The notes under the pieces are model-generated. The model worked only from the letters and a program-made list of their open reading frames with translations, made no database searches and had not been told where the DNA came from. A program made the position numbers and the translations under genes. A DNA stretch of 64,000 bases from a virus: positions 1 to 64,000 of the IMG/VR virus record IMGVR_UViG_3300012928_000001; one strand, given 5' to 3'. Shown here in pieces: positions 1 through 14,268 of this stretch (the stretch's first letter is position 1; each line of letters opens with the position of its first letter).

Positions 1-18
1 CACCGAGAACACCCCATC

Positions 19-348
19 ATGAGCCTCAACGACGACAACTTCACCCCCCGCTACTTGCTGCGCATCGCCTTCACGGCCGTGTGCATCCTCGGCCTGATCG
101 GCCTCACCACCGCAGCGTTCGGCTCATGTCGCGTCGTCGACACGGCCGTGCAGCGCAAGGTCTTTGAGAACTCGCATCAGTACCAAGAGAGCGCCAACGA
201 ACAGGTCCGCTTGCTCGAAGCGAGTCTCATCGAGATCGACGCCCAACTCTCCAACCCCAACCTGAGCGAGGACACTCGAACCTCGCTCTCGATCCAACGC
301 TCAACCGTCAACGCTCAACTACAGGCCGCCAAGGCCAAGACCCGATGA
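19..348 (+). CDS. Membrane-anchored coiled-coil hypothetical protein
   Basis: N-terminal hydrophobic helix then an amphipathic helical region; stop overlaps next ATG (ATGA). Confidence 0.6.
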   Translation: MSLNDDNFTPRYLLRIAFTAVCILGLIGLTTAAFGSCRVVDTAVQRKVFENSHQYQESANEQVRLLEASLIEIDAQLSNPNLSEDTRTSLSIQRSTVNAQLQAAKAKTR

Positions 349-929
349 GAACGTCCATGCACCGCAAGCCCACCTACACCCTCGCCGCCGTCGCCCTGAC
401 CACGGCTTTCGCCTCCATCCTCGCCTGCGATCCCAGCCCCAGCGCCGAGCAGGCCGACCGCAAGGCCGTCGCCAACCAGCAGGCCCAGTACGCCAAGGGT
501 CAACCCGTCCCCGCCTTCGACTGGTCCCTCGAACGCGAGCTCGTGATCCAGCTGTACAACGCCCGCAACCGCAAGGTCGCCACGCACAGCGTGTGGCGCA
601 GCGACACCGGCGTCATCGAGGGCGACTGCCCCAGCATCGGCTACGGCATCCCCTACGACACGAGCCTCACCAACCCGCTCGCGCCCTCGGTCCACGGGGG
701 AGCGAGCGCGCCCGCGGCCGTTGCCCTCGGGCAGGCCGAGCCCAACGGCGTGTTCGCGTCGACGAACACCTCCGCGACCTTCGTCACCTGCGCGGGTCCG
801 GGAGGCACCATCGCCCCGGTCTACGTCGAGTCGAAGGTCACGGTCTACCCGGGCCCCGTCTCGATCGACCACGACACCAACCGCGTCACCCCGGTCGGCC
901 CCTCGGCGGTCTCGATCTCGCTGGACTGA
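345..929 (+). CDS. Putative lipoprotein
   Basis: Basic N-terminus, hydrophobic stretch, lipobox-like ILAC; GC-rich codon bias. Confidence 0.65.
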   Translation: MRTSMHRKPTYTLAAVALTTAFASILACDPSPSAEQADRKAVANQQAQYAKGQPVPAFDWSLERELVIQLYNARNRKVATHSVWRSDTGVIEGDCPSIGYGIPYDTSLTNPLAPSVHGGASAPAAVALGQAEPNGVFASTNTSATFVTCAGPGGTIAPVYVESKVTVYPGPVSIDHDTNRVTPVGPSAVSISLD

Positions 930-1606
930 TGGACTACATCGCAAGCATGCGATTGGGCGCCGCGGAGTTCCGTGGCGCCTTTTTGCTTTCCAAAAATGAG
1001 CTGGCCGCACTCCTCTCGACGGCCGGACCCAAGCGAGCGCGTCCCGATGAGCGCACGCTTTGGATGTGCTGGGCCGAGCGAGAGGTCATCGCTTCGGATC
1101 GGACCATCATCATCCGCGCGTCGATGCTTCCGCGCGTCGACGTCGAGACCCCGATCAAGCCAAGCCCCGTGCTGGCCGAGGAACTCAAAGCCGCGGCCAA
1201 GGGCGCCAAGGCTTCGCACACCATCGTCATCGCCCGCGGGGTCGCACACACCATCATCGCCGTGGTCGAGACCGCGGCGCTACTGATCGATCGAGACAAC
1301 GACTCCGCGCACACGCTCGAAGACATGGTGCACGTGGATCTACTCCCGCCCGATGGTCTCGTCACGAGCCCGGACCGCATCCGCGCCGAGCTCGAAGGCG
1401 ACCCCGAGCAACCCCCGGCCAGTCACTTCGCGTGGTCGCTCCGCTACACGTCGACGCTGGAGAAGGTGGCCAAGGTCGCGGGCAAGGGCGAGAGCCTCGT
1501 GGTGTGGCCGCCCCTCGGCTCGGGGCCGTTCGTCGTCTCGGTCACCGTCGACGACTCGACCGCGTGGCAAGTCGCCATGATGCCGATGGATGCGGCCGAT
1601 GGCTGA
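929..1606 (+). CDS. Possible divergent DNA sliding-clamp (beta-clamp)-like protein
   Basis: ATG 929 overlaps upstream stop; VIASDRT resembles clamp vATDg motif and C-terminal VAMMPM resembles the clamp C-terminus. Weak, motif-level only. Confidence 0.3.
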   Translation: MDYIASMRLGAAEFRGAFLLSKNELAALLSTAGPKRARPDERTLWMCWAEREVIASDRTIIIRASMLPRVDVETPIKPSPVLAEELKAAAKGAKASHTIVIARGVAHTIIAVVETAALLIDRDNDSAHTLEDMVHVDLLPPDGLVTSPDRIRAELEGDPEQPPASHFAWSLRYTSTLEKVAKVAGKGESLVVWPPLGSGPFVVSVTVDDSTAWQVAMMPMDAADG

Positions 1607-2028
1607 GCTCAGCGGGGACAAGGCGATCACGATCATGGAAGTGCACACCCGCGGCTACACTTCGGAGTCCTGGGAGTGGCGAGATCAGCTGCGCGATGAG
1701 GGCTGGATTTTTTACGACGGGTTTGACCGGCAGTTCAAACTGACCGAGCTTTCGCTCTCCATGCTCGACGGGATCGAGACCATCGCGGTGATCCGACTCG
1801 ACGATCTGCGCGCCCGCGATGGCCCCTTGGACGAAAAAGGGCGAGCCCGCTTTGCGGGCTTCTACGGTGGGTAGCGCGTTCAGCGCTTGTCAAGCAAGAT
1901 CGTACCTGGCACGCCAGGACGATCTTTTTTCGATTTTTGCCAGAAAAGCGCTTGCACAGCCTGCACAACTTCGAGTAAGGTTCTTTCACCGGGCGAGAGA
2001 GACCGCCCGCAAGAAAGCAGACAGAACG

Positions 2029-3189
2029 ATGACCACCGACTCCAAGCTCACCGCCACCGCCCCCAACTTCACCAAGATCGACGACGTCTACTACTGCGCC
2101 GACGCCTACCGCATCGAGCCCTACTACACCAAATCGGGCAAGATCGGCGGTCGCAACCTCTTCGCCCTCACCGACGGCAAGGTCGCCCACGTGGGTTGGT
2201 ACCGCCGGCTCTCTCACGCCAAGACCGCGGCGCACACGCACTGGGTCAACGCTGGCTCGCCCGCCATCGACTTTGACATGCCCGTCAAGATCATCACGGA
2301 GATGACCCCGGTCGACCCCGAGCGCGAGGGCTGGGGCGCCGTGTCCAAGCGCGAGGGCTTGGGCATCGGCCCCGCGAGCACCGGCGACACGATCGAGCTG
2401 CTCACCCCCGCCCCGACCCCCGAGACCGACGAGGAGATTCTGGCCCGGCTCACCGCCCGCTTTGCCGCGATGTCCAACCTGGTCGACTGCATCATCACCG
2501 GGGCCGTTCGCTCCCTGATCATCACCGGCCCCGGCGGCGTCGGCAAAACCTACCCCACTGAGGCCGCCTGTCACGAAGCCATCGACGCCGGGGTGCTCCC
2601 CGCCTTTCAAAAGGTCTCGGGCACCATCTCCGCGAGCAAGCTCTTTCAGGCCCTGCACAACGTCAAGGATGGTGGCGTCCTACTGCTCGACGACGCCGAT
2701 CGGATTTTCGAGGACATCGACGCGCTGAACCTGCTCAAGGCCGCGCTCGACACGTCCAAGGTGCGCACCATCTCGTGGCTGAAAAACTCTAAGTGGCTCG
2801 AAAACGAGGGCATCCCGGCTCAGTTCAACTTTGACGGACAGGTCATTTTCATCAGTAACATCGACTTCCGCCGCGAGCAGTCGCGGACCACGAAGATCGC
2901 CCCCCACCTGAAAGCGCTCGTGAGCCGCTCGCTACTCCTCGACTTGGAAATGTCGAGCCAGCGTGACCTGCTCGTGCGGATCGAAGACATGGTCATCAAT
3001 CAAGGGATGCTCGATGACATGGGAGTCGACAAGGACGGCGCCCGCGAGATCGTCGACTTCATGAAAAAGCACGCCGATAGCTTCCACTCCCTGACCTTGC
3101 GCGAGGCGGTGAAGATCGCCCAGCTGCGCAACGCGGCTCCCTCGTTCTGGTGCGAGATGGCCATGAACACCGTCGCCGGCAAGCGCTAG
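2029..3189 (+). CDS. AAA+ family ATPase
   Basis: Walker A GPGGVGKT, Walker B LLLDDAD, sensor-like FISN, SR motif; start set at the ATG right after class-1 copy 1. Confidence 0.85.
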   Translation: MTTDSKLTATAPNFTKIDDVYYCADAYRIEPYYTKSGKIGGRNLFALTDGKVAHVGWYRRLSHAKTAAHTHWVNAGSPAIDFDMPVKIITEMTPVDPEREGWGAVSKREGLGIGPASTGDTIELLTPAPTPETDEEILARLTARFAAMSNLVDCIITGAVRSLIITGPGGVGKTYPTEAACHEAIDAGVLPAFQKVSGTISASKLFQALHNVKDGGVLLLDDADRIFEDIDALNLLKAALDTSKVRTISWLKNSKWLENEGIPAQFNFDGQVIFISNIDFRREQSRTTKIAPHLKALVSRSLLLDLEMSSQRDLLVRIEDMVINQGMLDDMGVDKDGAREIVDFMKKHADSFHSLTLREAVKIAQLRNAAPSFWCEMAMNTVAGKR

Positions 3190-3218
3190 CACCCACGGGG
3201 AGGGCCCAGCCCTCCCCC

Positions 3219-3277
3219 GGCGTCCGCCCCTGTTGCCGGGGCGCTGACGAGGGCCCGCAAGGCAGGGCCGAAACGCC
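3219..3277 (+). ncRNA. Hammerhead ribozyme, type III (copy A)
   Basis: GGCGUC^ / stem I CGCCCC:GGGGCG / CUGACGA / stem II GGCCC:GGGCC / GAAA / stem III GGCGU:ACGCC; predicted cleavage after C3224. Confidence 0.9.
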
Positions 3278-3291
3278 AAAGGAGAGAGACC

Positions 3292-3498
3292 ATGTCCCGC
3301 AACCGCAATCACGATCAGTCTTCCCCCCGAGCCCGAGCAAAGACCCGCGCCATGATGCGCAAGGCGTGGCGAGCCCGCCGCGAGGCCAAGCGAGCCCGCG
3401 CGGCCGGCCACAACTTCGACGCGGCGCAAGCCGAGATCCGGGCCGCCAAGCTCGACCCCGACGGCGCCCCGACCTTGCTCCCCGCTCCCGCGATCTGA
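3292..3498 (+). CDS. Small basic hypothetical protein downstream of hammerhead A
   Basis: AAGGAG upstream of ATG; 68 aa, Arg/Ala-rich. Confidence 0.6.
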   Translation: MSRNRNHDQSSPRARAKTRAMMRKAWRARREAKRARAAGHNFDAAQAEIRAAKLDPDGAPTLLPAPAI

Positions 3499-3543
3499 CA
3501 CGATCGTCTGTGACTCGCACCCGTGTTTGGCCTACGGTAACGC

Positions 3544-4461
3544 ATGACGCAACCGAACGCATGGACATGGGGCGGGCTCGAAGTTCACTACACAAAGGAC
3601 AACTTGCCCGGCGTGCTCCTGAACGCACTCGCGGTCAAGATCCAGATCAACGCGAGCACGCTCCGCGGGCGATGGCGACGAAGCTTCGCCGCGACGGATG
3701 ACAGCTTGCCGACCGAGTCCAAGACGCCATATCGCACCGTCGTGACCGAGTCGATCGCCGAGACGATCGCCACGGAGTACAACACCGACAACCCCAAGAT
3801 CGCGGCGAGCTTGCGATCGTTGGCCCGCGACCTGTCGGGCCTGTCCGTCATCGCCAAAGCGGGGGTCCAAGTCCCGCCGATCCAAGCCCCGCCGATCCAA
3901 GCCCCGCCGGCCGTGCCCCCGCTCCCCGGCGAGCCCAAGGTCGACCCCTTCGAGCCGGGGCCAACCCCCAGCTTCGATCCCCTCCCGCCTATCGACCGCT
4001 TGGGCCGGCTCCCGCGTCTCTCGCCCGGCCTCCCCCCGGTGCTTCGGACCACGCTCAAAGACACGCTCCGCGAGCTGCTCGCCGAGATGCTGCCCGAGGC
4101 CCTGCACCGCGCCGTGCACGGCCTGAGCGTGAACCTGGGAGACGACGATCTCGGGACGCTCCGGCGGATCGTCCGTGAAGAGCTCGCCGCCGCCCACGGC
4201 CTCGCGGACTACCCCGCCTGGGTGATCGAGGCCGAGCCCCGGTACATCGCGGGCGAGCTCGGGACCTACGCCGCGATCGCGTCCGCCTACGCCGTGCCGC
4301 TCGTCGACGTCGAGGAAGTCGGGCGCGCCCGCTCGTGGCACCGCCGGCAGACCGAGCACGCCCGCGCCAAGCTGGCCGAGGCCCACGCCCGCGCCCGCAA
4401 GGCCGCCGCCGAGACCCCGGCGCCCAAGCCCGCCCCCGGCGTCACCATCGGGCGCTCATGA
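3544..4461 (+). CDS. Putative DNA-binding protein with Pro-rich linker and C-terminal TerS-like HTH
   Basis: C-terminal PAWVIEAEPRYIAGEL...SWHRR matches the HTH region of 18193..19062; starts directly after a class-2 promoter. Confidence 0.5.
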   Translation: MTQPNAWTWGGLEVHYTKDNLPGVLLNALAVKIQINASTLRGRWRRSFAATDDSLPTESKTPYRTVVTESIAETIATEYNTDNPKIAASLRSLARDLSGLSVIAKAGVQVPPIQAPPIQAPPAVPPLPGEPKVDPFEPGPTPSFDPLPPIDRLGRLPRLSPGLPPVLRTTLKDTLRELLAEMLPEALHRAVHGLSVNLGDDDLGTLRRIVREELAAAHGLADYPAWVIEAEPRYIAGELGTYAAIASAYAVPLVDVEEVGRARSWHRRQTEHARAKLAEAHARARKAAAETPAPKPAPGVTIGRS

Positions 4462-4946
4462 GCTTGCGAGGGAAGCTCGAAGCGCTTGCGCGGGTGCTCC
4501 CCCGTCGACAGGTACACGTCGACGGGGAGCTTTACCTTGACCGCTATTACCTGTGGGGCCGGCCGCCCAATCAGGATGGGTGGGATGGGTTGATCGTCCC
4601 GCGCTTGCGCTTGCTCCCGACGGCCTACCTGCATCACTTCCATCGCCCCGACGGTGATCGGCTTTGCCACAATCACCCGTGGCACGCGATGGGCCGAGTC
4701 CTCGCCGGCCACTACACAGAGCAGCGCTATGCAGGGCATCCCGCCGATGGTGTGCCTACTGGGTTGATCAAGCGCGAGCCGGGAGAGTGGTACGGGATCA
4801 CGCCGGACACCTTCCATCGCCTCGCCCGAGTCAGCGAGGGCGGCGCGTGGACCCTGTTCATCATCATCGGGGACAAGCTCCAGTCGTGGGGCTACTGGGA
4901 TCCGGTCGGAAAGTTGTTCATCCCGTGGCGCGAGCGCTGCCACTGA
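4458..4946 (+). CDS. Cupin-like phage protein
   Basis: YLDRYYL...YLHHFHRPD...HNHPW...GHYTE...FHRL...WTLF...WGYW, a His-rich cupin-type pattern. Confidence 0.6.
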   Translation: MSLRGKLEALARVLPRRQVHVDGELYLDRYYLWGRPPNQDGWDGLIVPRLRLLPTAYLHHFHRPDGDRLCHNHPWHAMGRVLAGHYTEQRYAGHPADGVPTGLIKREPGEWYGITPDTFHRLARVSEGGAWTLFIIIGDKLQSWGYWDPVGKLFIPWRERCH

Positions 4947-4970
4947 GCCCCAGGGCGCACACCATCTCGG

Positions 4971-5007
4971 AAGATCGGTCAAGAGAAATCTTGACCGATC
5001 TTTTTTT
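4971..5007 (+). terminator. Intrinsic terminator fused to class-1 copy 2
   Basis: Perfect 14-bp stem AAGATCGGTCAAGA/TCTTGACCGATCTT, GAAA loop, T-tract. A related hairpin lies at 1896-1930 before copy 1. Confidence 0.8.
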
Positions 5008-5106
5008 CGAAAAATCGCCAGATACCGCTTGCACAGCCTGCACAACTTCGACTATATACGTCTGGCGGGGGCGAGAGAGACCGCCCCCGAGAAAGCAGAC
5101 AAGATC

Positions 5107-5400
5107 ATGGCCCGCAAGTTCACCAAAGACCCCGCCCTTACCGCTCGCGTCACCGGCACCATCAAGCTCCAGGCCATCGGAGAGACCAGCGCCATCCCCG
5201 CGGGTGACCTCAAGCCGGGTGACGTCACGATCTGGAACTTTGGCGGACAGAACACCGTGGTGCGCATCGACCGCGAGACCGCGAAAACCGTGTGGATCAC
5301 GTTCTCCTATTACTGCAACGTCAACAAAGAGGTTGTGGTGTCGAGCAAGCCGCGCCGCCTCAAAAAGGATCGTCTGGTCGGATTCAAGACCTGGCACTGA
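5107..5400 (+). CDS. Early array hypothetical protein (SH3/KOW-like beta pattern)
   Basis: ATG follows class-1 copy 2; AGDLKPGDV motif. Confidence 0.7.
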   Translation: MARKFTKDPALTARVTGTIKLQAIGETSAIPAGDLKPGDVTIWNFGGQNTVVRIDRETAKTVWITFSYYCNVNKEVVVSSKPRRLKKDRLVGFKTWH

Positions 5401-5423
5401 TCGAAGGGAAGGGACAAAAGACC

Positions 5424-5690
5424 ATGACCGCCAACACCGCCAAGATCATTAAGCGCCACTCCCGCAAGATCCTCGACGCCCTCACCGGCTGGCGCGAGGA
5501 TGCGGCCCGGCATGGCTACCCTAGCACCGGGATCGACCCGGAGCGGCGCGCGGTGATCGTGCTCGTGCGCGATGGTCGCCGCTACAGCGCGATCCCCCAA
5601 TACCGCACTGAGCCCGTGGGTGCTGAGATCGACTGCACTACTGGCCTCATGGCCGACTATGACTGGGCGGTGGTCGCGCAAGTCGCTTGA
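5424..5690 (+). CDS. Early array hypothetical protein
   Basis: Purine-rich leader before ATG 5424; stop abuts class-1 copy 3. Confidence 0.6.
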   Translation: MTANTAKIIKRHSRKILDALTGWREDAARHGYPSTGIDPERRAVIVLVRDGRRYSAIPQYRTEPVGAEIDCTTGLMADYDWAVVAQVA

Positions 5691-5800
5691 TCAAGATTTT
5701 TTCGAAAAATCGCCAGATACCACTTGCACAGCCTGCACAACTTAGACTAGAGTACTTTCACCGGGCGAGAGAGACCGCCCGCGAGAAAGCAGACAGAACG

Positions 5801-6583
5801 ATGACCACCGAGACTTTCATCCGCGCCAACCCCACCCGCCTCCCCTCCGGTTACTGGGGCGTCAAAGGCACCGGCCGTATTCCCGCGCTGAATGAGCCTG
5901 TTCGCGTCCAGACGCGTGGTGGAAAGACCTGGTACGCGCAGATCACGAGCAAGCCGCAGGTCACGGCTTGGGGCTGGCGCGCGAGCAGCGAGAGCATGAG
6001 CAAGGCCGACGCGCAGTCTTACGTGCGCAAGCTCCGCAACCGCCCCGTGATCCCCATGACTTGGCCCGAGGACCCCACGCCCGAGCCCGCTCCCGAGCGC
6101 AAGCCGGACGCGAACGGCTTCTATCCTGCGCCCCCGGCCAACGGTCGACCCAAGTGGGAGCCCATGACCCCCGCCGTGCACGGTGAGCCCGTGTGGTCCG
6201 GCGAGTGGTCCACGCTCACGCTCAACCGCTCCGGCAAGTTTGATCTGTCGGTGTTCGGGGACACGCACTGCGGGCTTGCCGACCGAGACGGTAACGTCCC
6301 CTGCACGTACGCGCTCACGCTCGTTTGCGAGGCTAGCGGCCTGGATAAGGACGGTTTCCTGGTCGAGCAGGTCGGGATCGATCGGTTCTTTAACGAGGAT
6401 CTCGGCCCCGTGGGTGTGAGCTGCGAACTGCTCGCCCTGAACTGTGCGCGCGAGCTGTACCGCAAGATTCGCCGCGAAAACCCCCACGTCAAGATCAAGG
6501 GCCTGCGTCTCACCATCGCCCCGACCCCCGAGGGTATGCAGGGCGCCGCGGACATGACTTTCGCGTGGGGGGAGGGGCTCTAG
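5801..6583 (+). CDS. Two-domain protein; C-terminal half possibly QueD/PTPS-like T-fold
   Basis: ATG follows copy 3; HCG...YALTL...LDKDGFLVE...SCELLA...LRLTI pattern resembles 6-pyruvoyl-tetrahydropterin synthase spacing but lacks the HGH motif. Confidence 0.4.
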   Translation: MTTETFIRANPTRLPSGYWGVKGTGRIPALNEPVRVQTRGGKTWYAQITSKPQVTAWGWRASSESMSKADAQSYVRKLRNRPVIPMTWPEDPTPEPAPERKPDANGFYPAPPANGRPKWEPMTPAVHGEPVWSGEWSTLTLNRSGKFDLSVFGDTHCGLADRDGNVPCTYALTLVCEASGLDKDGFLVEQVGIDRFFNEDLGPVGVSCELLALNCARELYRKIRRENPHVKIKGLRLTIAPTPEGMQGAADMTFAWGEGL

Positions 6584-6749
6584 CCCGTCCAGGGCTCGCG
6601 CCCGTTCTGCGCCAATCTGAGGGCCCCAAACGGGGCCCTCATTTTTTTTCAAAAATCTGGCGTTTACCCCTTGCACAACCTGCACAACTTAGACTAGAGT
6701 ACTTTCACCGGGGGCGAGAGAGACTGCTCCCAAGAAAGCAGACAAGATC

Positions 6750-6959
6750 ATGACCGCCGCCGACATCGCCATCAAGCTTACCCGCGAGCAACACATCATC
6801 CTCCGTGACTGCACCCACGGCCACACCCGCGAGCTTTCCCGCCTCCCCGCGCCCCTGATCGGGCTGCGCGATTACAAGCTGGCCCTGACTGACCGCGCGT
6901 TCGCGGTCGCCGCGTGCGGCGCGTTCCTGCATGAGGACATTTACTCGGTGGGGAACTGA
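6750..6959 (+). CDS. Early array hypothetical protein
   Basis: ATG follows class-1 copy 4. Confidence 0.7.
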   Translation: MTAADIAIKLTREQHIILRDCTHGHTRELSRLPAPLIGLRDYKLALTDRAFAVAACGAFLHEDIYSVGN

Positions 6960-6961
6960 GC

Positions 6962-7210
6962 ATGGCATCCGAGCACCCGATCACCGAAATCAGCGCCAAG
7001 TGCGTCTCTAACTCCCGCGTCAGGATCACCGCCAACCTCGACGGCCACGCCGAAATCACGATCGAGCTCCGCCGCGATGGCGCGCAGGTGATCGCAGAAT
7101 CGGCCAAGTGGCACAATGGGCAGGGCTTCGCTAGCACCGTGCATGTCTCGCGCGTCCCCCGCAACGTTATGCGCGTCTCGAAGAATCTGGCACGCGATCT
7201 GCTCGCCTAA
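6962..7210 (+). CDS. Early array hypothetical protein
   Basis: Coupled to the upstream ORF; stop abuts copy 5. Confidence 0.6.
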   Translation: MASEHPITEISAKCVSNSRVRITANLDGHAEITIELRRDGAQVIAESAKWHNGQGFASTVHVSRVPRNVMRVSKNLARDLLA

Positions 7211-7316
7211 ACTTTTTTCGAAAAATCGCCAGATTGGGGTTGCACAGCCTGCACAACTTAGACTAGAGTACTTTCACCGGGGGCGAGAGAGTCCCCGCCA
7301 GAAAGCAGACAAGACC

Positions 7317-7517
7317 ATGCCCACCGAGATCACCTACTTCACCTGCGTTCTCTCCTTCCCCACCAACCCCGACCATCGCACCGCGTGGCACCCCTACTAC
7401 GCCACCGGCAAGCGCTCGCGCCTCACCCGCGGCGCCTTCGACACCGAGCAGGAAGCCCACGATTGGGCGAGCGAGCAGGGGATCCACCCGAGCACCTACA
7501 CTGTCCAGGGCTACTGA
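7317..7517 (+). CDS. Early array hypothetical protein
   Basis: ATG follows copy 5; GAFDTEQEAHDWA motif typical of small phage proteins. Confidence 0.7.
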   Translation: MPTEITYFTCVLSFPTNPDHRTAWHPYYATGKRSRLTRGAFDTEQEAHDWASEQGIHPSTYTVQGY

Positions 7518-7545
7518 GCCCGCTCCGGGGCCCACGAGGGCCCCA

Positions 7546-7601
7546 CCCGTCCGACCCCTACCGCTGGGGCGCTGATGATGGCCCAGCAAGGCCGAAACGG
7601 G
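7546..7601 (+). ncRNA. Hammerhead ribozyme, type III (copy B)
   Basis: CCCGUC^ / stem I CG(A)CCCC:GGGGCG / CUGAUGA(U) / stem II GGCC:GGCC / GAAA / stem III CCCGU:ACGGG; predicted cleavage after C7551. Confidence 0.88.
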
Positions 7602-7616
7602 AAAGCAGGCAAGATC

Positions 7617-7823
7617 ATGACCACCACCGAGACTGTAATCGTCGTCACCTACGCGAATGGAGCGTCCAGCGCGTACCGCTCCCCCGAGACCATGCGCGAG
7701 TGGGCGGCCGACGCGGACCCGATCAACGCCCAAGCGTTCCGCACGATGGCCGACATGATTGATAGCGCCGCGTTGTCGGGCTCCGCGGGGGGCTTTCGCT
7801 TCCGCGTGATGCGCGTGCGCTAA
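7617..7823 (+). CDS. Early array hypothetical protein downstream of hammerhead B
   Basis: Leader GAAAGCAGGCAAGATC-ATG is a variant of the class-1 translation-initiation region. Confidence 0.7.
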   Translation: MTTTETVIVVTYANGASSAYRSPETMREWAADADPINAQAFRTMADMIDSAALSGSAGGFRFRVMRVR

Positions 7824-7941
7824 GCTCGCCAAAAGTTTTTTCGAAAATCTGGCGATCTGGGGTTGCACAACCTGCACAACTTAGACTAGAGTACTTTCAC
7901 CGGGGGCGAGAGAGACCGCTCCCAAGAAAGCAGACAGACAA

Positions 7942-8124
7942 ATGCAGATCTTCACCATCTCCGGCGTTACCTACACTTTCGAGATCCTCGGCGCCCTTGC
8001 CAACGCGCGCATTTTGGCCGCCATCGAGATCCGCGCCGAGCGCGGCGAGGACATGAGCTACTTTGACGACCGCATCGCGGCCGTCCAGGCCAAGGCCACG
8101 ATCCGCCCCCGCCGCGCGAACTGA
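7942..8124 (+). CDS. Early array hypothetical protein
   Basis: ATG follows copy 6; followed by hairpin terminator 8131-8162. Confidence 0.7.
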   Translation: MQIFTISGVTYTFEILGALANARILAAIEIRAERGEDMSYFDDRIAAVQAKATIRPRRAN

Positions 8125-8260
8125 GAGATCTAGGGCCCCAGGGATGGGGTCCTAACTTTTTTCAAAAAATCGCCAGATAGCACTTGCACAGCCTGCACAA
8201 CTTCGAGTAATACTTACTCACCGGGCGAGAGAGACCGCCCCCAAGAAAGCAGACAAGATC

Positions 8261-8437
8261 ATGACCATCGACAAGTCCAAGCCCCTCACCACCGGCACCC
8301 GTCACTCCATCGTTTGCATGATTCGCGCCGTTGGCGGCTGCAAAAAGCGCCGCGGACAGGATGTCTGGGACACGGTTGATGGTGATGTCCTCGAAATCCG
8401 CGCACACGGCGACACTCTTGCGCTTTTCGCTCGCTGA
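8261..8437 (+). CDS. 58-aa early array protein (not in the supplied ORF track)
   Basis: ATG follows copy 7; MTIDKSKPLTTGTRHSIVCMIRAVGG...LALFAR, stop TGA 8435-8437. Confidence 0.65.
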   Translation: MTIDKSKPLTTGTRHSIVCMIRAVGGCKKRRGQDVWDTVDGDVLEIRAHGDTLALFAR

Positions 8438-8466
8438 TCACGCACCCCCACCGGAAAGCCAAGATC

Positions 8467-8748
8467 ATGACCACCGCGACGCCCATCACCATCGAGACCC
8501 GCCCACTCGCCTACTTTCGCGCCCACGCGGAGCCCCACCCCGCACGGGTCGACCTGAACAGCTTCCGGGCCGGCTGGATCCTGTGGTGTTACCTGCGCGG
8601 TGACGAGGACTGCAAGAATGGCGCGGAGCTCATGGGCTACCAATACGCGGCCGAGTACAACGACAACGGGGGCGGCGCTCGCCCGAGTGCGGAAGACGCG
8701 CAAGATCTTGACGCGAGCGATATCAAGCAAGCGATCGAGTGGCTCTAA
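8467..8748 (+). CDS. Early array hypothetical protein
   Basis: Partial leader GAAAGCCAAGATC-ATG; stop abuts copy 8. Confidence 0.7.
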   Translation: MTTATPITIETRPLAYFRAHAEPHPARVDLNSFRAGWILWCYLRGDEDCKNGAELMGYQYAAEYNDNGGGARPSAEDAQDLDASDIKQAIEWL

Positions 8749-8855
8749 CTTTTTTCGAAAAATCGCCAGATTGCTCTTGCACAACCTGCACAACTTCGAG
8801 TAAGGTTCTTTCACCGGGGGCGAGAGAGACCGCTCCCAAGAAAGCAGACAAGATC

Positions 8856-9188
8856 ATGGCCCTTCCCAAGACCTCCCCCGCCCTCCCCGCCCTGACCCTC
8901 GCCATCCTCGCCGCCGATGGCCGCGAGCTCCGCGAGGCCATGTTCCCGAGCGCCAAGACCGCGGGCGACGCGCTCAAGGCGCTGGGCGCCAAGCGCCACG
9001 GCCGCTCCCGCGTCTTTGACGTCGAGTACGCCGGGCGCACCATGACCGTTCAGATCCACAAGATGGGGCACAACGCGTTCCGCGTTTGGCGCATCGACCA
9101 GCTTCAGGCTTTCTGGGCCGAGACCGTGAGCGAGAGTGTCCTTTCGGACTACAGCGAGGGCCGCGCCGTGATCGAGTACATCGGCTAG
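8856..9188 (+). CDS. Early array hypothetical protein
   Basis: ATG follows copy 8; stop abuts copy 9. Confidence 0.7.
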   Translation: MALPKTSPALPALTLAILAADGRELREAMFPSAKTAGDALKALGAKRHGRSRVFDVEYAGRTMTVQIHKMGHNAFRVWRIDQLQAFWAETVSESVLSDYSEGRAVIEYIG

Positions 9189-9295
9189 AACTTTTTTCGA
9201 AAAATCGCCAGATACCACTTGCACAACTCGCACAACTTCGAGTAGAGTACTTTCACCGGGCGAGAGAGACCGCCCGCAAGAAAGCAGACAAGATC

Positions 9296-9538
9296 ATGAC
9301 CGCCAAGACCGCTCCCGCCCTCGTCGTCCCCGCCCTCTACGATGTCAAGACCCGCCTGATCCTGGTCCGCGTGAGCGACACGCGCAGCGAGCTTCGCATC
9401 GCTACCAAGCGCGGCGCGGTGCGCCCTTTGGCCAAAAACTCGTTCATCATGGACGCTGCACACGAAAACGCGCTCGCTTACGCCAAAACTCTGCACGCGA
9501 CCCCGGGCGAGCTGTTCGGCTGCGCCATCTACGCCTGA
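9296..9538 (+). CDS. Early array hypothetical protein
   Basis: ATG follows copy 9; stop abuts copy 10. Confidence 0.7.
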   Translation: MTAKTAPALVVPALYDVKTRLILVRVSDTRSELRIATKRGAVRPLAKNSFIMDAAHENALAYAKTLHATPGELFGCAIYA

Positions 9539-9646
9539 ACTTTTTTCGAAAAATCGCCAGATACCACTTGCACAACCTGCACAACTTCGAGTAATACTTA
9601 CTCACCGGGGGCGAGAGAGACCGCTCCCAAGAAAGCAGACAAGATC

Positions 9647-10102
9647 ATGACCACCGAGATCGTTACCACCCCCGCCCTCATCGACATCACCAACATGAGC
9701 GATGCCGCCCTCGACGCCCTACTGGGCCTGGAGCCGGCGCGAGAGCTCTACCGCGTCGAGTGCGGGGAGATGGAGCGCGCCCACGCCAAGTGCCTGTCTG
9801 AGCTCGCCAAGGGCGAGATCGGGGCCAAGGCCCTCCGCGCCGCGGTGGCCCGCGGAGCCCACCCCGTGGAGCTCCAAGACTGGGCGGTCAACGTCCTGCG
9901 CGAGGGCGGGATGCGCCGGGTCGGCCCCGCGCACGTCGCGCTCATGGACAAGGAGCTGCGCGTCGCCCGCTCCCTCAAGATCGAGGCCGACGCCGAGGGC
10001 CTGGAGACCTACCTGCGCGCCCGCCGCGCCAGCCACGGGCTCCCCCGTCTCACCCGCGCCGGCCGTGCGCTCATGTTCGCGCTCATCGCTTACAAGCTCT
10101 AA
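9647..10102 (+). CDS. Early array hypothetical protein
   Basis: ATG follows copy 10. Confidence 0.7.
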   Translation: MTTEIVTTPALIDITNMSDAALDALLGLEPARELYRVECGEMERAHAKCLSELAKGEIGAKALRAAVARGAHPVELQDWAVNVLREGGMRRVGPAHVALMDKELRVARSLKIEADAEGLETYLRARRASHGLPRLTRAGRALMFALIAYKL

Positions 10103-10242
10103 ACCCGGTCCGGGGCCCGATCTAGGGCCCCTCGCAGATTTTTCGAAAAAAGCTGGCGATTTCACTTGCACAACCTGCACAACTTCGGATAAGGTCTCTT
10201 CACCGGGCGAGAGAGACCGCCCGCAAGAAAGCAGACAGCACG

Positions 10243-10701
10243 ATGACCGCCAAGCCCGCCCCCGCCCCCACCTTCACCGACGACGTCACCACCCGCGCCA
10301 CCCTGCTCACCGGCAAGATCGGCGACGACTGCACGGTCCGTTACGATTTCGCCGAGTACTGGATCATGGTCGATGGCGACCATGTCAAGACCGACGGCAC
10401 GCGCGATGCGCTGCTCAACTCGCTTTCCAAGGCGACCACCCTGGCCGAGGCGCAGGAAGACGCGCGCAATGTTCGCAGGGTCCTCTCGGGCCGCGCCGGT
10501 TACGACCTGCGCAGCATCCGCCTGGTCCGTAAAGTCGGTTTCGTGGTCATTGCGTACGGTTTCGAGCAGGATCTGAGCGAGGACGGCGAAGGGGCGATCA
10601 TGGCCACTGAAAAGGTGCTCGCTGGGGAGCGCCCCACGCATGAGCCGCGCTCGCGCGACTTTTTCCGGGAGTTCATCGCGGCCCGCGCTGCCGCGGCTTG
10701 A
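10243..10701 (+). CDS. Early array hypothetical protein
   Basis: ATG follows copy 11; followed by terminator TAGGGCCCC-TGAC-GGGGCCCTA-ACTTTTTT. Confidence 0.7.
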   Translation: MTAKPAPAPTFTDDVTTRATLLTGKIGDDCTVRYDFAEYWIMVDGDHVKTDGTRDALLNSLSKATTLAEAQEDARNVRRVLSGRAGYDLRSIRLVRKVGFVVIAYGFEQDLSEDGEGAIMATEKVLAGERPTHEPRSRDFFREFIAARAAAA

Positions 10702-10841
10702 GGGAAGATCTAGGGCCCCTGACGGGGCCCTAACTTTTTTCTCAAAAATCGCCAGATACCCCTTGCACAACCTGCACAACTTCGAGTAGAGTACTTTCAC
10801 CGGGGGCGAGAGAGACCGCTCCCAAGAAAGCAGACAGACCG

Positions 10842-11231
10842 ATGCAGACCTGGAAATCCGACCACTCCGACGTCACTCCCATCGTTTACCTCATGAACAT
10901 TCTCGACACGTTCATGTCCCTGCTCGCCGTGGACGGCGAGCGCGAGGCCTACGGCGCGCTTTTCCGCTCCCGCTTCGACGGCGCCGAGATCCCGTTTTGC
11001 GAGGAGAGCGCCCGCGAGCTCGCCCTCGCGGAGATCGCGCCCCTGCTTTACGACTCCGCCGTCGACGGTGACCGCGCGCGGCGCGAGGGCTTCGACTTCC
11101 TCTTCGACGCGGAGCCCGCCGACTACTACCCCGGGCGCTACATGCGCGGCACCCCGCTGGACGCCTACGTGTGCCAGATGCTCGATCTCCCCTACCGCTC
11201 CGCCTTTCCCATGATCTTGATCGCCTGCTAA
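10842..11231 (+). CDS. Acidic early array hypothetical protein
   Basis: ATG follows copy 12; stop abuts copy 13. Confidence 0.7.
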   Translation: MQTWKSDHSDVTPIVYLMNILDTFMSLLAVDGEREAYGALFRSRFDGAEIPFCEESARELALAEIAPLLYDSAVDGDRARREGFDFLFDAEPADYYPGRYMRGTPLDAYVCQMLDLPYRSAFPMILIAC

Positions 11232-11335
11232 CTTTTTTCGAAAAATCGCCAGATACCCCTTGCACAACCTGCACAACTTCGACTAGAGTACTTTCACCGG
11301 GGGCGAGAGAGTCCCCGCCGAAAGCAGACAAGATC

Positions 11336-11626
11336 ATGGCCCGCAAGACCCGCAAGCCCGCCCGCGCCTACAAGCCCGCCCGCAAGACCCGCAAGCCCGC
11401 CTCCCGGCGCAAGAGCGGAAAGCAGATCATCGCGGACGCGTGGAACGCGGTTGAGTGCGCGATGGACTGGACCATGGCGTGCCTCGATGACATGCCGGAG
11501 CTGCTGGCCGAGGCCGAGGCCGAGGAAGAAGAGGCGCGCCGCGCGTACAAGCTCGCGGTGGCCACGCACGGCGCCAACATCCCCCCGGCCCTGCGCGCCG
11601 CGGCGATCGCCAAGTTCGCGGCATGA
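11336..11626 (+). CDS. Early array protein with basic repeat N-terminus and acidic helix
   Basis: ATG follows copy 13; (ARKTRKPA)x2 then EAEAEEEE. Confidence 0.7.
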   Translation: MARKTRKPARAYKPARKTRKPASRRKSGKQIIADAWNAVECAMDWTMACLDDMPELLAEAEAEEEEARRAYKLAVATHGANIPPALRAAAIAKFAA

Positions 11627-11737
11627 TCAACTTTTTTCGAAAAATCGCCAGATTGCTCTTGCACAACCTGCACAACTTCGACTAGAGTACTTTCACCGGG
11701 GGCGAGAGAGACCGCCTCCAAGAAAGCAGACAAGATC

Positions 11738-12064
11738 ATGACCATCGAGATCACCGTCACCACGACCGCCCCCGCCCCCCCCCGCGTCACCGCCAACCCC
11801 GAGTGGTCCAGCATCGGCGCCACCCCCGACGCCGAGAACACCTGCCCCGCGGAGCGCGCCCGTCCCGAGCGCAAGGGCCGCCTGGAGATCGTGTCTCTGA
11901 GCAACGACTCGGTTTGGTCCCTGACGGATTGCACCTTGGATCAGGCCCGGCACATCCTGGATCAGGTTCAGGCCACCGGCGACAAGGATGCTGCGCTCAT
12001 GGTGGGCGGCGCGTGGGACGTTCGCCCCGCGAACTACCTGATCACCCTGTACCGCTGCGCCTGA
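11738..12064 (+). CDS. Early array hypothetical protein
   Basis: ATG follows copy 14. Confidence 0.7.
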   Translation: MTIEITVTTTAPAPPRVTANPEWSSIGATPDAENTCPAERARPERKGRLEIVSLSNDSVWSLTDCTLDQARHILDQVQATGDKDAALMVGGAWDVRPANYLITLYRCA

Positions 12065-12164
12065 GATTTTTTTTTTATAAATCGCTTGCACAACCTGCAC
12101 AACTTCGAGTATATAGATCTGGCGGGGGCGAGAGAGACCGCCCCCGCCGAAAGCAGACAAGATC

Positions 12165-12473
12165 ATGCGCTACTCCCAGACCGCCCCCACCAAATCCGAT
12201 CTACAAGCGATCCGCGCGCTTGGAAAGTCCCTCAACCTTTCAAGCCCGCTACGCGTGCGCAAAAACGCCGGATCTCTGCGTTACAGCGCCACGGTCAAGT
12301 GCCTCGATATCTCGACTGGCGAGGCTATCGCCCTCCTTGAAGGACTGAGCGCGCTGGGTTTTGACAGTGGCGTCCCGGGGGGCAAGTTTGATCTGGCGCA
12401 CACCATTGCGCAGACGAAAACGCATGGGTTTACCACCGTCAATCTACAGGTGTCGCGCTGGGTGCGCGGGTAA
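12165..12473 (+). CDS. Early array hypothetical protein
   Basis: ATG follows copy 15. Confidence 0.7.
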   Translation: MRYSQTAPTKSDLQAIRALGKSLNLSSPLRVRKNAGSLRYSATVKCLDISTGEAIALLEGLSALGFDSGVPGGKFDLAHTIAQTKTHGFTTVNLQVSRWVRG

Positions 12474-12497
12474 GCACAACTGAAAGGATCTCGACCG

Positions 12498-12974
12498 ATG
12501 ATCGTCTACCGCGCCAAGATCAATCGTCCCGCCTCCACTCGCCGCCCCGCAACCGACACGCGCGGCATGGATCCTCGCGTCGCCGCGCAGCACCGCAAGC
12601 GCGACAGCACGGGCCTCGCTGCCGAGGGCAGCCACGCGGGCGGACCCTGCCCCGCTGTGTGCCTCGCGTCGCTCACTGGGTGGTCCTACGGGGAGGCCAG
12701 CACCTTCCTCGCCCAGTACGGCTATCGCCGCGCAGGGTTGACGAGCACGGCGATCAACCGGGCGATCGCCAAGGCCATCGACGCACCCACCCGCCGGCTT
12801 TCGATCTCCATTGGGGCCACGGTCGCGCAGGTCGCCCGCGAGTTCCAGCGCCAAGGCGCAACCGGCTGGATCTACTCCAGCAATCATGTGATGCCCGTCA
12901 TTGACGGCGAGATCCAAAACGCATCGAAAACTCAGTTGCGCATGAAGTGTGAGGAGGCCCATGCGTTCGTCTGA
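12498..12974 (+). CDS. Hypothetical protein, possibly papain-like (Cys...His) fold
   Basis: GPCPAVCLASLTGWSYGEA and later NHVMPVIDG; AAGGA upstream. Confidence 0.45.
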   Translation: MIVYRAKINRPASTRRPATDTRGMDPRVAAQHRKRDSTGLAAEGSHAGGPCPAVCLASLTGWSYGEASTFLAQYGYRRAGLTSTAINRAIAKAIDAPTRRLSISIGATVAQVAREFQRQGATGWIYSSNHVMPVIDGEIQNASKTQLRMKCEEAHAFV

Positions 12975-14268
12975 TACTCACCCGAGCTTCGCTATCGTGG
13001 CGGTCCGCGTGACCGCGTCGGAAGCATCAATCATCCAAGACTTACTGGCCCAACGTGGCAAGGATTTTGAACCGCTCGCGCGCAAGTTCGCCGCTGCAAT
13101 GACGCAGTGCATTTTCACTCGCGCCATGGATCGGGACTATCACAACGGACTCGACGAGCGCCGCAAATGGCTTGTCCGTGTCCCGCTGGACAGCAACCGC
13201 AAGCCCGGTGATTTCGTGAACGTCTCGCGCCGAGACTCCACTACATCATCGGTCAAGCTCGGTCCCATGATCCGCAAGGGCCACCGCTACGCCTACCACA
13301 CCACGGACCGCAAGCGAGCCGAGGGCGAGCCCAAGGCCGAACGGAAATACCGCTACTCGGAAGTGTGACTCACGCCCCCATTCGGCCTACAGAGAGATAC
13401 CTCCAATGACCGCTCACCACTACACGCCCGATCCCTCGATCCTCATCATCACCGGCCCGCAGTTCCGAAAGCAGACACGCGCCGAGCAGGTCGCCCAGTA
13501 TGACGCACAGTTGCGATTCATCATGGAGGCCATCGCCAACACTCCGACCACGCCGACAAAGCCCACCGACGTGATCGAGATCCGCGTGCTACTCACGCGG
13601 AAGCTCTTCACCGCCGTGCATGACGTGCTGAATCGGAACGGGTGGGAAGTCCACGAGGGCGAGCCCAACCCCGCGGGTCACCGCGGTGACGGTACATGGC
13701 CGATCATGCTGCGCCCGTCGATCGTGCGCGGGCCCAGCACGCGCACACAGCCCGTAGACACCGTCGAGAGCCCGCCGGCCGGCTGGGCGCCGCCCCCCGA
13801 CTGGATCCGCACTCGGGACGAAGCGCGCGCCCGTCTCGTGGCCGCCACGGAGGGCGAGGAATGAGCGGCGCGTGTCAGGCCTACTACGCCCCGATCACCA
13901 TCGGACCGCGTACCGGCGTGGTCATCGTGAGCGCCCCCGACAAGCCCACCGCGCGGCGCATGATCGCGGAGCACGTGCGGGATAACGTGCCCATTGAATC
14001 GCGCTACATCTCAGGCAAAGGTCTCTACATGGGGCCCAGCATGAACGCGATCCAACCCGTCAACGGCGACCCCGGTAAAGTCGTCTACTTCGATTCGGGG
14101 GTGTCCTGATGAGCCTCGCCGACGCCAAAGTGGGGGACCAGCTTGTCTGGGTTGCTGGGTTCCGCCGCCATCGCACAATCGTCACGGTCACTCGCGTCAC
14201 GGCCACACAGATCATCGTCGGGACGCGCAACAGGGTAGACCGGATCCGCAAGCGCAACGGTAGCGTCA

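Follow-up and report, generated by a model that had tools for sequence, protein, structure and literature searches.

The closest described counterparts of the locus reported here are the promoter-stem-loop (PeSL) cassettes of the T4-type phages, which join an AT-rich tract to an early promoter and a terminator stem-loop, stand beside orphan open reading frames (ORFans) and take part in repeat-mediated recombination, which has been put forward as the force behind plasticity (PMC2839356, PMC4122927). Both exchange and mini-circles have been shown for them (Arbiol, Comeau & Krisch 2010, PMC2839356; Comeau et al. 2014, PMC4122927), and the idea drawn from this work is that the same regulatory repeats serve as expression signals and as recombination sites for ORFan turnover (PMC2839356, PMC4122927). 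A second point of reference is the host-takeover module of phage SPO1, which lies in the terminal redundancy, carries strong promoters and ribosome-binding sites, and encodes products that shut off host processes (PMC6873191). Here we analyse an array of 15 repeat units, each loaded with small genes, in bases 1-64000 (hereafter the window) of the 105,163-bp virus record IMGVR_UViG_3300012928_000001, which is rated complete by CheckV. Judged from sequence, the units are probably reiterated sigma-70-type promoters joined to a standard 5′ leader, which have recombined among themselves and would each give a gene or short operon its own mRNA.

Like a PeSL, each unit is a repeated intergenic composite with an AT-rich tract upstream of a -35-like element, here of a putative sigma-70-like promoter. 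The units are likewise concentrated beside small ORFans in a phage with T4-style recombination genes. A GC-rich stem-loop, the putative counterpart of the PeSL terminator, precedes only six of the 15 units (U1, U2, U4, U7, U11 and U12). Unlike in a PeSL, the conserved unit is about twice as long and takes in a hairpin leader and an initiation region as far as the ATG, with weak homology in the first codons; the 15 units form one contiguous co-oriented block, whereas PeSLs are scattered over several hyperplastic regions; the match to the Escherichia coli consensus is weak; and candidate ribozymes occupy some of the slots. In contrast to the PeSL carriers, the phage is not T4-like (Tevenvirinae-type). 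The array is PeSL-like, yet not a member of the PeSL cassettes in the strict sense, and what is new relative to them is the conservation of the whole leader, the single block and the candidate ribozymes. The PeSL analogy drawn in a preliminary description of this DNA is supported for the AT tract, the -35/-10-like elements, the leader, the terminator in six units and the orphan genes (PMC2839356), but not for strict membership.

The same description had also likened the array to the SPO1 module. The two do resemble each other in being blocks of about 10-12 kb with roughly two dozen small genes, arranged in short operons that have their own promoter or promoter-like unit. However, the array does not lie in a terminal redundancy (the end repeat of the record is 123 bp, and the contig depth of the array is not double that of its flanks), and its leaders are without strong Shine-Dalgarno sites, the core motif being present in 0 of 15, and on these two points the analogy fails. 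Repetition immediately upstream of many start codons in one genome is also a feature of the cluster K mycobacteriophages, whose start-associated sequences are a short conserved motif of about 13 bp. These are linked to translation and lack a full promoter and hairpin unit, and the likeness to the present array is one of resemblance only.

A search for the core TTGCACARCCTGCACAACTT with up to three mismatches returned 15 copies, all on the + strand, compared with 0 in 100 shuffles, and no other copy was found in the 105,163-bp genome. The co-oriented units span 1925-12164 and measure 98-108 nt from T-tract to ATG, and all 15 terminate at an ATG that opens a frame with a third-position GC content (GC3) of 0.69-0.93. 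The preliminary description had claimed 15 near-identical units of about 105 bp, each ending exactly at an ATG, within bounds of 1925 and 12473; these counts agree with it in full, the two bounds being exactly the T-tract of U1 and the stop codon of U15a, the first gene behind U15. The units are listed from the T-tract to the base before the ATG:

1925-2028, + strand: U1, with a variant upstream block, -10-like TAAGGT and a short hairpin
5001-5106, + strand: U2, with -10-like TATATA and a perfect 8-bp hairpin
5697-5800, + strand: U3, with TAGAGT and a short hairpin
6642-6749, + strand: U4, with TAGAGT and the upstream 8-mer inverted (ATCTGGCG, 6655-6662)
7213-7316, + strand: U5, with TAGAGT and an altered 3′ arm of the hairpin
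7836-7941, + strand: U6, with TAGAGT and the upstream 8-mer inverted (TCTGGCGA, 7848-7855)
8157-8260, + strand: U7, with TAATAC and a short hairpin
8750-8855, + strand: U8, with TAAGGT and a long hairpin
9192-9295, + strand: U9, with TAGAGT and the core variant AACTCGCAC
9541-9646, + strand: U10, with TAATAC and a long hairpin; the representative used for folding
10139-10242, + strand: U11, with a variant of TAAGGT and the upstream 8-mer inverted (GCTGGCGA, 10152-10159)
10735-10841, + strand: U12, with TAGAGT
11233-11335, + strand: U13, with TAGAGT and an altered 3′ arm of the hairpin
11632-11737, + strand: U14, with TAGAGT
12067-12164, + strand: U15, with TATATA and a 9-bp hairpin, without the upstream 8-mer block

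In the alignment, a stop codon or hairpin is followed by a T5-10-CG-A5 palindrome, the 8-mer TCGCCAGA and 5-6 variable bases; the middle part reads TTGCACA(A/G)CCTGCACAACTT(C/A)GA(C/G) and then TAGAGT, TAAGGT, TAATAC or TATATA; and the 3′ part consists of 7-9 bases, the hairpin GGGGGCG-AGAGAGAC-CGCTCCC, and A-AGAAAGCAGACA-N5-ATG. T5-10 followed by A-rich bases is present in 15 of 15 units, 12 of which have it as the exact words TTTTCGAAAA (10 copies) or TTTTTCAAAAA (2 copies), with a single other site in the genome at 86412. The spacing can be written as TTGCAC-18-TAnnnT or TGCACA-17-TAnnnT. TTG and TA are invariant throughout, and the four types of -10-like hexamer vary only after the leading TA. 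The 8-mer TCGCCAGA, which lies between the A/T palindrome and the -35, has its reverse complement in its place in U4 and U6, and a near match to it in U11, as if it were a small element working in either orientation.

Conservation is uneven along the unit. The mean pairwise identity is 0.81 (range 0.65-0.94), compared with 0.38 for coding nucleotides 19-78 downstream, and among the blocks it is lowest in the -10 block (0.69), reaching 0.84 in the hairpin, 0.87 in the initiation region at the unit end, (A)GAAAGCAGACA-N5-ATG, and 0.92 in the -35/spacer. Beyond the ATG the homology is weak: nucleotides 1-18 are 0.56 identical, and codon 2 is ACC in eight of the 15 units.

The A/T palindrome (T6-CG-A5) stands upstream of the -35-like TTGCAC(A) in a genome of 65% GC, and expression of the array would most likely occur early in infection, by the host polymerase. 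Two arrangements are found directly before most units. In eight of the 15 the preceding stop codon is 1-6 nt before the T-tract, without a hairpin, much as the preliminary description had reported for the upstream stops, and in six further units (the six named above) a strong GC-rich hairpin precedes the T-tract. These six hairpins fold at -18.6 to -27.8 kcal/mol (over the segment folded) and abut the T-tract in five cases, while that of U11 is 7 nt away. Three of them are, independently, the top + strand matches of the consensus scan, and a fourth, before U1, is lower in its list:

1898-1924, + strand: terminator-like hairpin abutting the U1 T-tract
4973-5000, + strand: 12-bp hairpin with intrinsic-terminator geometry, abutting the U2 T-tract (-24.2 kcal/mol)
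6618-6641, + strand: 10-bp GC hairpin plus T8, a terminator before U4
8131-8154, + strand: 10-bp hairpin plus T-tract, a terminator before U7
10112-10131, + strand: 7-bp GC hairpin of weaker terminator geometry, 7 nt before the U11 T-tract
10711-10732, + strand: 9-bp GC hairpin plus T-tract, a terminator before U12

Since a hairpin directly before a T-tract has the geometry of an intrinsic terminator, the T-tract appears to have a double role, as terminator tail and as promoter-upstream A/T element. Genes that follow the six units with such a terminator in front would need a transcription start of their own. In these units the T-tract would be the U-tract of the upstream terminator and would insulate neighbouring cassettes, and each module would yield its own mRNA, carrying either a single orphan gene or 2-4 genes as a short operon.

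Transcription would begin about 7 nt after the -10, which would put the leader hairpin (5-9 bp, loop AGAGAGAC) 0-3 nt from the 5′ end of the RNA. Stem-loops placed at the very 5′ end are classical stabilisers of mRNA, and the hairpin would shield the message from 5′-end-dependent decay. In the predicted fold the hairpin stands at the 5′ end and the remaining leader, including the initiation region, is open, with an unpaired probability of 0.59-0.89. Hairpin pairing is found in 95.7% of cells, compared with 48-69% for slid-partner controls, and the sole covariation-like feature is a GG insertion in the 5′ arm that accompanies a G-to-C change in the 3′ arm.

Translation initiation also seems to follow one pattern throughout the array. 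The core Shine-Dalgarno 4-mer, missing from all 15 leaders, is found in roughly 30 of 127 genes genome-wide (by crude start calls), and the leaders instead carry (A)GAAAG exactly 11 nt before the ATG. This AGAAAG would be in register to pair with the last bases of a ...CCUCCUUUCU-3′ 16S tail, should the host have one. The promoterless inner genes U5b and U7b carry the same GAAAGC..AAGATC-ATG motif, and this reuse without a promoter indicates that the initiation region is a module in its own right.

In two slots that lack the promoter-hairpin block, a hammerhead-like module precedes this same initiation motif:

3197-3217, + strand: GC hairpin of 9 bp with no T-tract, between the U1a stop, which it closely follows, and hammerhead A, from sequence and fold
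3219-3277, + strand: candidate type III hammerhead A (GGCG-UC^, stem I, CUGACGA, extra G, stem II, GAAA, CGCC)
7527-7544, + strand: GC hairpin of 7 bp with no T-tract, between the U5a stop and hammerhead B
7546-7601, + strand: candidate type III hammerhead B (CCCG-UC^, stem I, CUGAUGA, extra U, stem II, GAAA, CGGG)

Both sites lie between genes of a multi-gene unit and have the same layout, namely a stop codon, a GC hairpin without a T-tract, the hammerhead, the initiation region and an ATG; hammerhead B runs straight into GAAAGCAGGCAAGATC-ATG. The core of hammerhead A was read by eye and with a structural regular expression. By inspection, both copies show the type III features: CUGANGA (C3-A9), GAA (G12-A14), an A15.1-U16.1 pair, the cleavage site H17, and three stems with stem III open. 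Both have one extra base after A9, before stem II, and two pairs of stem III differ on both sides between the copies (GGCG/CGCC versus CCCG/CGGG). On this sequence evidence we regard A and B as credible candidates, not as established ribozymes. Were self-cleavage to occur at these sites, the message of the downstream gene would begin with a structured 5′ end and that of the upstream gene would finish with a 3′ hairpin.

Hammerheads are known to flank single genes in prophages, and in the haloviruses HF1 and HF2 a variant lies 13 nt before the start codon of an early gene (PMC3088659); the role proposed for phage hammerheads is the cutting of long transcripts into single-gene mRNAs (Perreault et al. 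2011, PMC3088659). Like those, the present candidates have type III-like cores and stand between genes of one transcription unit. They differ in the extra base between A9 and stem II, in occupying a slot otherwise filled by a promoter-leader unit, and in the GC hairpin before them.

The hammerheads bear directly on an alternative in which the units are not promoters at all but intercistronic RNA elements, with functions in processing, stabilisation by hairpins and translation initiation, within one or a few long early transcripts. Two hammerhead-like modules imply that the phage appears to process polycistronic RNA, the initiation motif is reused without a promoter at U5b and U7b, and 0 of 15 units reach a sigma-70 consensus threshold, all of which would suit such elements. 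We nevertheless consider this alternative very improbable, because six units stand directly behind strong intrinsic terminators, the best-conserved part is the -35/spacer DNA together with the A/T palindrome, for which there is no obvious RNA role, and the hammerheads are confined to places without the -35/-10 block, as would be expected of alternative routes to a 5′ end.

Reading the units as sigma-70-type promoters with a standard leader nevertheless meets several difficulties, which should be set against it. Not one of the 15 units, which match only about 8 of 12 consensus positions, is accepted by an E. coli-type sigma-70 scan. The -35/spacer block is more conserved than a sigma-70 spacer requires, and a 9-nt direct repeat within it (TGCACAAC twice) recurs upstream of the phage sigma gene without a -10 after it; another factor may thus be involved. 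The label 'early' is applied to the array by analogy. As for the RNA, the z-score of the leader fold is modest (-1.85 for the representative U10), and no hairpin pair is changed on both sides, i.e. there is no two-sided covariation. Hammerhead A has no Rfam match even at E ≤ 10, and hammerhead B, searched on a 116-nt stretch, matches RF00008 with 24.1 bits (E = 0.002), below the gathering score of 48.5; an Rfam search over 1-16000 gave no match at E ≤ 1, hammerhead B included. Finally, no cassette rearrangement was seen in the metagenome contigs described further below, which is weak evidence.

The repeat shared with the sigma gene can be followed outside the array. CACAAC-N3-CACAAC, with its 9-nt period, occurs there only at genome positions 86395-86425, 87245-87275 and 88228-88260 (beyond the window), before three consecutive genes that encode a 199-aa orphan, a DUF6744 protein and the phage sigma factor, with no TAnnnT after it. 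The 86.4-kb site also has the TTTTTCAAAAA palindrome, which there follows the repeats instead of preceding them.

A second class of promoter-like sites, GTGACTCGC-N11-GGCCTACRGTA (GTGACT-17-TACRGT), is present in about 27 good copies (30 by a loose pattern) at 13365-42500 of the window and at genome positions 80266-104686 (beyond the window). These sites precede winged-helix paralogs, small RNAs, the terminase region, and replication and recombination genes, and many have an ATG or GTG only 4-8 nt after them, which implies leaderless mRNAs. One copy lies inside the array:

3510-3539, + strand: class 2 promoter-like site GTGACTCGC-N11-GGCCTACGGTA, 4 nt before the U1c ATG

From sequence, then, the genome has at least two promoter-like classes of sigma-70 shape, and by analogy with other large lytic phages we lean towards the class with an upstream A/T element fronting tiny orphan genes as the likelier host-read early one. 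A crude k-mer look upstream of the structural genes gave no late-promoter motif. No T7-like RNA polymerase was matched in the genome; this is a weak negative, as the control genomes were silent too.

A different polymerase requirement is conceivable. The units could be promoters that depend on the phage sigma, or on a phage activator or repressor at the TGCACAAC repeats, and would then be of a middle class or form a co-regulated regulon. The MotA box at T4 middle promoters is a model for such activator binding. The phage does encode one sigma-70-family gene (a Sigma70_r2 protein, gene end at 88941), the -35/spacer with its 9-nt direct repeat is nearly invariant, CACAAC-N3-CACAAC recurs only before the three genes that include the sigma gene, and the units fail the E. 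coli consensus scan. We judge this to be rather unlikely, since the A/T-rich upstream tract, the TTG of the -35 and TAnnnT at 17-18 nt suit a housekeeping sigma; early regions typically hold tiny orphan genes in a block, as here; the commoner class 2, found before replication and recombination genes, is the better candidate for a later class; and the sigma gene itself has the CACAAC motif, yet must precede anything that depends on sigma.

A candidate small RNA lies in another part of the window. At 29625-29785 there is a class 2 site and, behind it, a stretch without ORFs (29.66-29.78 kb) whose fold has three hairpins. It has a CU-rich loop GUCUCUCUC...CUUUCUCUC (RNA GUCUCUCUC...CUUUCU) and an CUGUCUGC stretch, which are complementary to the class-1 hairpin loop, to AGAAAG and to GCAGACA(G) / GCAGACAG.

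In a crude duplex ranking over the whole leader, this candidate falls in the top 1.4% without being the best window. A speculative extension, to which we give a low probability, is that the leader is kept identical over 15 genes as a handle for one trans-acting off-switch, by which a standardised early regulon would be silenced in one step, while the repeats double as recombination sites for swapping cargo. The switch would be either the class-2-driven small RNA or a protein binding the TGCACAAC repeats shared with the sigma gene. If true, promoters, ribozymes and leaders could be understood as parts of a one-gene-one-mRNA early regulon.

In addition to their presumed role in expression, the promoter-leader units carry traces of exchange with each other. 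Three multi-nucleotide types of the -10 block are each paired with both hairpin forms (with GG or none) and with both A/G alleles of the core. Such a mosaic is hard to obtain by recurrent mutation but is explicable by exchange, and we conclude from the sequences that homologous exchange or gene conversion between units has occurred. The units would have arisen by duplication and then swapped segments in this way. Neighbouring units have variants in common, U3-U6 all being TTAGAC-TAGAGT, and unit remnants stand before U2b, U5b and U7b. Deletion, duplication and swapping of whole cassettes is plausible, through the homology of the units and the recombination proteins of the phage, whose genes lie beyond the window:

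99373-100227 of the genome: SSB
100292-101284 of the genome: UvsX-like recombinase (phrog_97, E = 1e-84)
102777-104639 of the genome: SbcC/gp46-like protein

This T4-style set (99373-104639) is present although the phage is not T4-like. The 392-aa gene directly before the SbcC/gp46-like gene is without an assigned function.

The sequence is contained in two public runs (X1 and X2), which are marine DNA metagenomes from 2017 kept as contigs; no RNA run was among the listed runs that contain it. No joint at a unit boundary was found in the contigs of either run, which is weak evidence, as contigs break at most units and U2 alone lies within a listed contig. The joints listed, with sides of 21-24 nt, are inside genes and not at unit boundaries, and were treated as spurious. 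Cassette-specific contig depth is near-equal, at 88-102 in X1 and 262-290 in X2, although contigs drop rare variants. Both runs show the same three base differences from the record over 16 kb (3990 T>C, 11778 C>T and 15428 C>T), indicating that they carry a near-identical strain and not the very same assembly.

These data matter for the proposal of the preliminary description that recombination between units now shuffles cassettes, excises circles, and captures host-takeover or anti-defence genes. The mosaic units show past exchange, and the phage has recombination genes of its own; gain, loss, excision or capture of a whole cassette was not seen in the contigs. There are 15 direct repeats of about 105 bp with 65-94% identity, past exchange and unit remnants before U2b, U5b and U7b, UvsX-like, SSB and SbcC-like genes, an orphan cargo of unrelated sequences, and an experimental precedent in the T4-type phages (PMC2839356). 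We think an active exchange platform of this kind possible but doubtful: besides the two runs, whose weight is small for the reasons given, the gene neighbourhoods of NrdC.10 in 31 other phages that encode it contained none of the cargo proteins, and the anti-defence function is argued from position alone. A regular array of short cassettes bounded by a repeated element also recalls integrons, and site-specific recombination at the repeats might be envisaged. We reject this as extremely improbable, since neither a tyrosine integrase (PF00589) nor a serine resolvase (PF00239) was found in the complete genome, while control genomes gave matches; every cassette here has its own promoter-like unit, whereas integron cassettes are without promoters; and no attC-like imperfect palindrome spans a cassette junction.

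If the units are what they appear to be, i.e. promoters with a standard leader, they would be an unusually clean natural set of standardised expression parts, in which one promoter, one stabilising 5′ hairpin and one initiation region free of Shine-Dalgarno sites are reused 15 times before unrelated genes, with terminators or ribozymes as insulators between the cassettes, and would offer a compact promoter-leader part for high-GC hosts. The PeSL idea would then no longer be confined to T4-type phages, whose hosts are enterobacteria and vibrios, but would also cover a marine myovirus of high GC that is unrelated to them.

The cargo comprises 22 ORFs in 1925-12473, of which 15 are promoter-proximal and seven inner; the preliminary count of about 19 was right as to many small ORFs but too low in number. 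The U15 transcription unit probably continues to about 13368, and U15b, which is without a promoter of its own, is probably part of it. As had been claimed, the ORFs are unrelated to each other (no cargo protein pair at E < 0.01). Twenty of the 22 have no Pfam or PHROG match at or above threshold; 19 have none whatsoever, and U5a has one below threshold. The two families recognised are an NrdC.10-like AAA+ ATPase (U1a) and a cupin (U1d). The genes are as follows, with lengths in amino acids (aa) and isoelectric points (pI) where distinctive:

2029-3189, + strand: U1a, 386 aa, AAA+ ATPase (phrog_1250, E = 4e-87)
3292-3498, + strand: U1b, 68 aa, Arg-rich (pI 11.9), orphan, with an AAGGAG Shine-Dalgarno
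3544-4461, + strand: U1c, 305 aa, orphan with a Pro-rich centre
4458-4946, + strand: U1d, 162 aa, cupin-like (phrog_4786 'cysteine dioxygenase', E = 1.3e-27)
5107-5400, + strand: U2a, 97 aa, orphan
5424-5690, + strand: U2b, 88 aa, orphan, preceded by a decayed leader-like GAAGGGACAAAAGACC-ATG
5801-6583, + strand: U3a, 260 aa, orphan, one partial homolog among 5.8 billion clusters
6750-6959, + strand: U4a, 69 aa, orphan
6962-7210, + strand: U4b, 82 aa, orphan
7317-7517, + strand: U5a, 66 aa, sub-threshold Arm-DNA-bind_4 (20.7 bits, cut-off 22.3)
7617-7823, + strand: U5b, 68 aa, orphan, class-1 initiation motif without a promoter
7942-8124, + strand: U6a, 60 aa, orphan
8261-8437, + strand: U7a, 58 aa, orphan, GC3 0.69
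8467-8748, + strand: U7b, 93 aa, orphan, preceded by the unit remnant CACCGGAAAGCCAAGATC-ATG without promoter or hairpin
8856-9188, + strand: U8a, 110 aa, orphan
9296-9538, + strand: U9a, 80 aa, orphan
9647-10102, + strand: U10a, 151 aa, orphan, matching only itself among 5.8 billion clusters
10243-10701, + strand: U11a, 152 aa, near-orphan, two remote matches (E ~1e-5) among 1.84 billion representatives
10842-11231, + strand: U12a, 129 aa, acidic (pI 4.3), orphan, nothing usable in the protein atlas
11336-11626, + strand: U13a, 96 aa, orphan with a basic N-terminus and an acidic centre
11738-12064, + strand: U14a, 108 aa, orphan
12165-12473, + strand: U15a, 102 aa, orphan
12498-12974, + strand: U15b, 158 aa, orphan, beyond 12473

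An anti-defence role of the cargo is a reasonable prior from position alone, and the 22 probable early genes, 20 of them without a family, form a ready list for screens of host takeover and counter-defence. The C-terminal two-thirds of U1a is about 42% identical to the protein of KVP40 and other T4-likes that is called nrdC.10 by its UniRef name. Its closest homologs (P0001-P0004), on Logan/ENA contigs of 5-36 kb, show 43-57% identity in the search and 46-51% in alignment A1. These contigs measure 36,037 bp for P0001 (Logan), 12,445 bp for P0002, 15,620 bp for P0003 (ENA) and 4,789 bp for P0004. In IMG/VR, the U1a alignment gave 31 loci with identities of at most 41%, all in lower-GC phages, and no homolog of the other cargo proteins was found in the 507 kb around them. 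Residues ~135-260 of U3a resemble small T-fold proteins (PTPS/FolB-like; TM 0.74-0.76 by target, from a low-confidence atlas model), and the nearest cluster is mostly viral; a T-fold is possibly present in this C-terminal half, which we offer as a lead only. A U3a homolog with 62% identity, P0122, lies on an NCBI contig of 794 bp.

Searches of cultured phages, IMG/VR and JGI metagenomes returned no relative with the array. Megablast of the array DNA against 50,697 phage records gave no match, and the sheath protein found no relative in IMG/VR. The one exact match of the core in IMG/VR (L009) is a chance 20-mer in an unrelated lower-GC sequence and was rejected; the leader hairpin 16-mer and the class 2 motif gave only chance matches in IMG/VR, with no proteins in common. 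The core 18-mer had at least 118 matches in JGI metagenomes, none with the context of T-tract, hairpin and position before an ATG. Many of these were set aside as members of an unrelated low-GC repeat family, ...GGGCCCTTGTGCA-TTGCACAACCTGCACAACCCATTGCTACGCCACTG..., which contains the 18-mer by chance (L050, L053, L058, L066 and others) and recurs on dozens of short contigs of one sample series (JGI Ga01263xx, Ga0081606).

The genome, with about 65% GC and nearly all genes on the + strand, encodes a myovirus gene set (large terminase, portal, HK97/XkdG-type major capsid, head-tail adaptor, sheath, tape measure and baseplate), as well as a DNA polymerase, two helicases and a primase. No close cultured relative is present among the 50,697 phage records, where the capsid (phrog_1623/XkdG-type) reaches at most 39% identity to siphovirus and myovirus capsids, and the sheath at most 28% to that of any cultured phage. 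Only the NrdC.10-like, UvsX-like and SbcC-like genes are common with the T4-likes. The two ends of the record share the exact 123-bp repeat mentioned above. An assembly overlap would have this length, so that a circular or circularly permuted record is probable, whose 'left end' is without meaning. At about 87130-87200 of the genome (beyond the window), a tRNA-like T-arm GGTTCGAATCC with a flanking stem lies in the intergenic region before the gene at 87281-88177.

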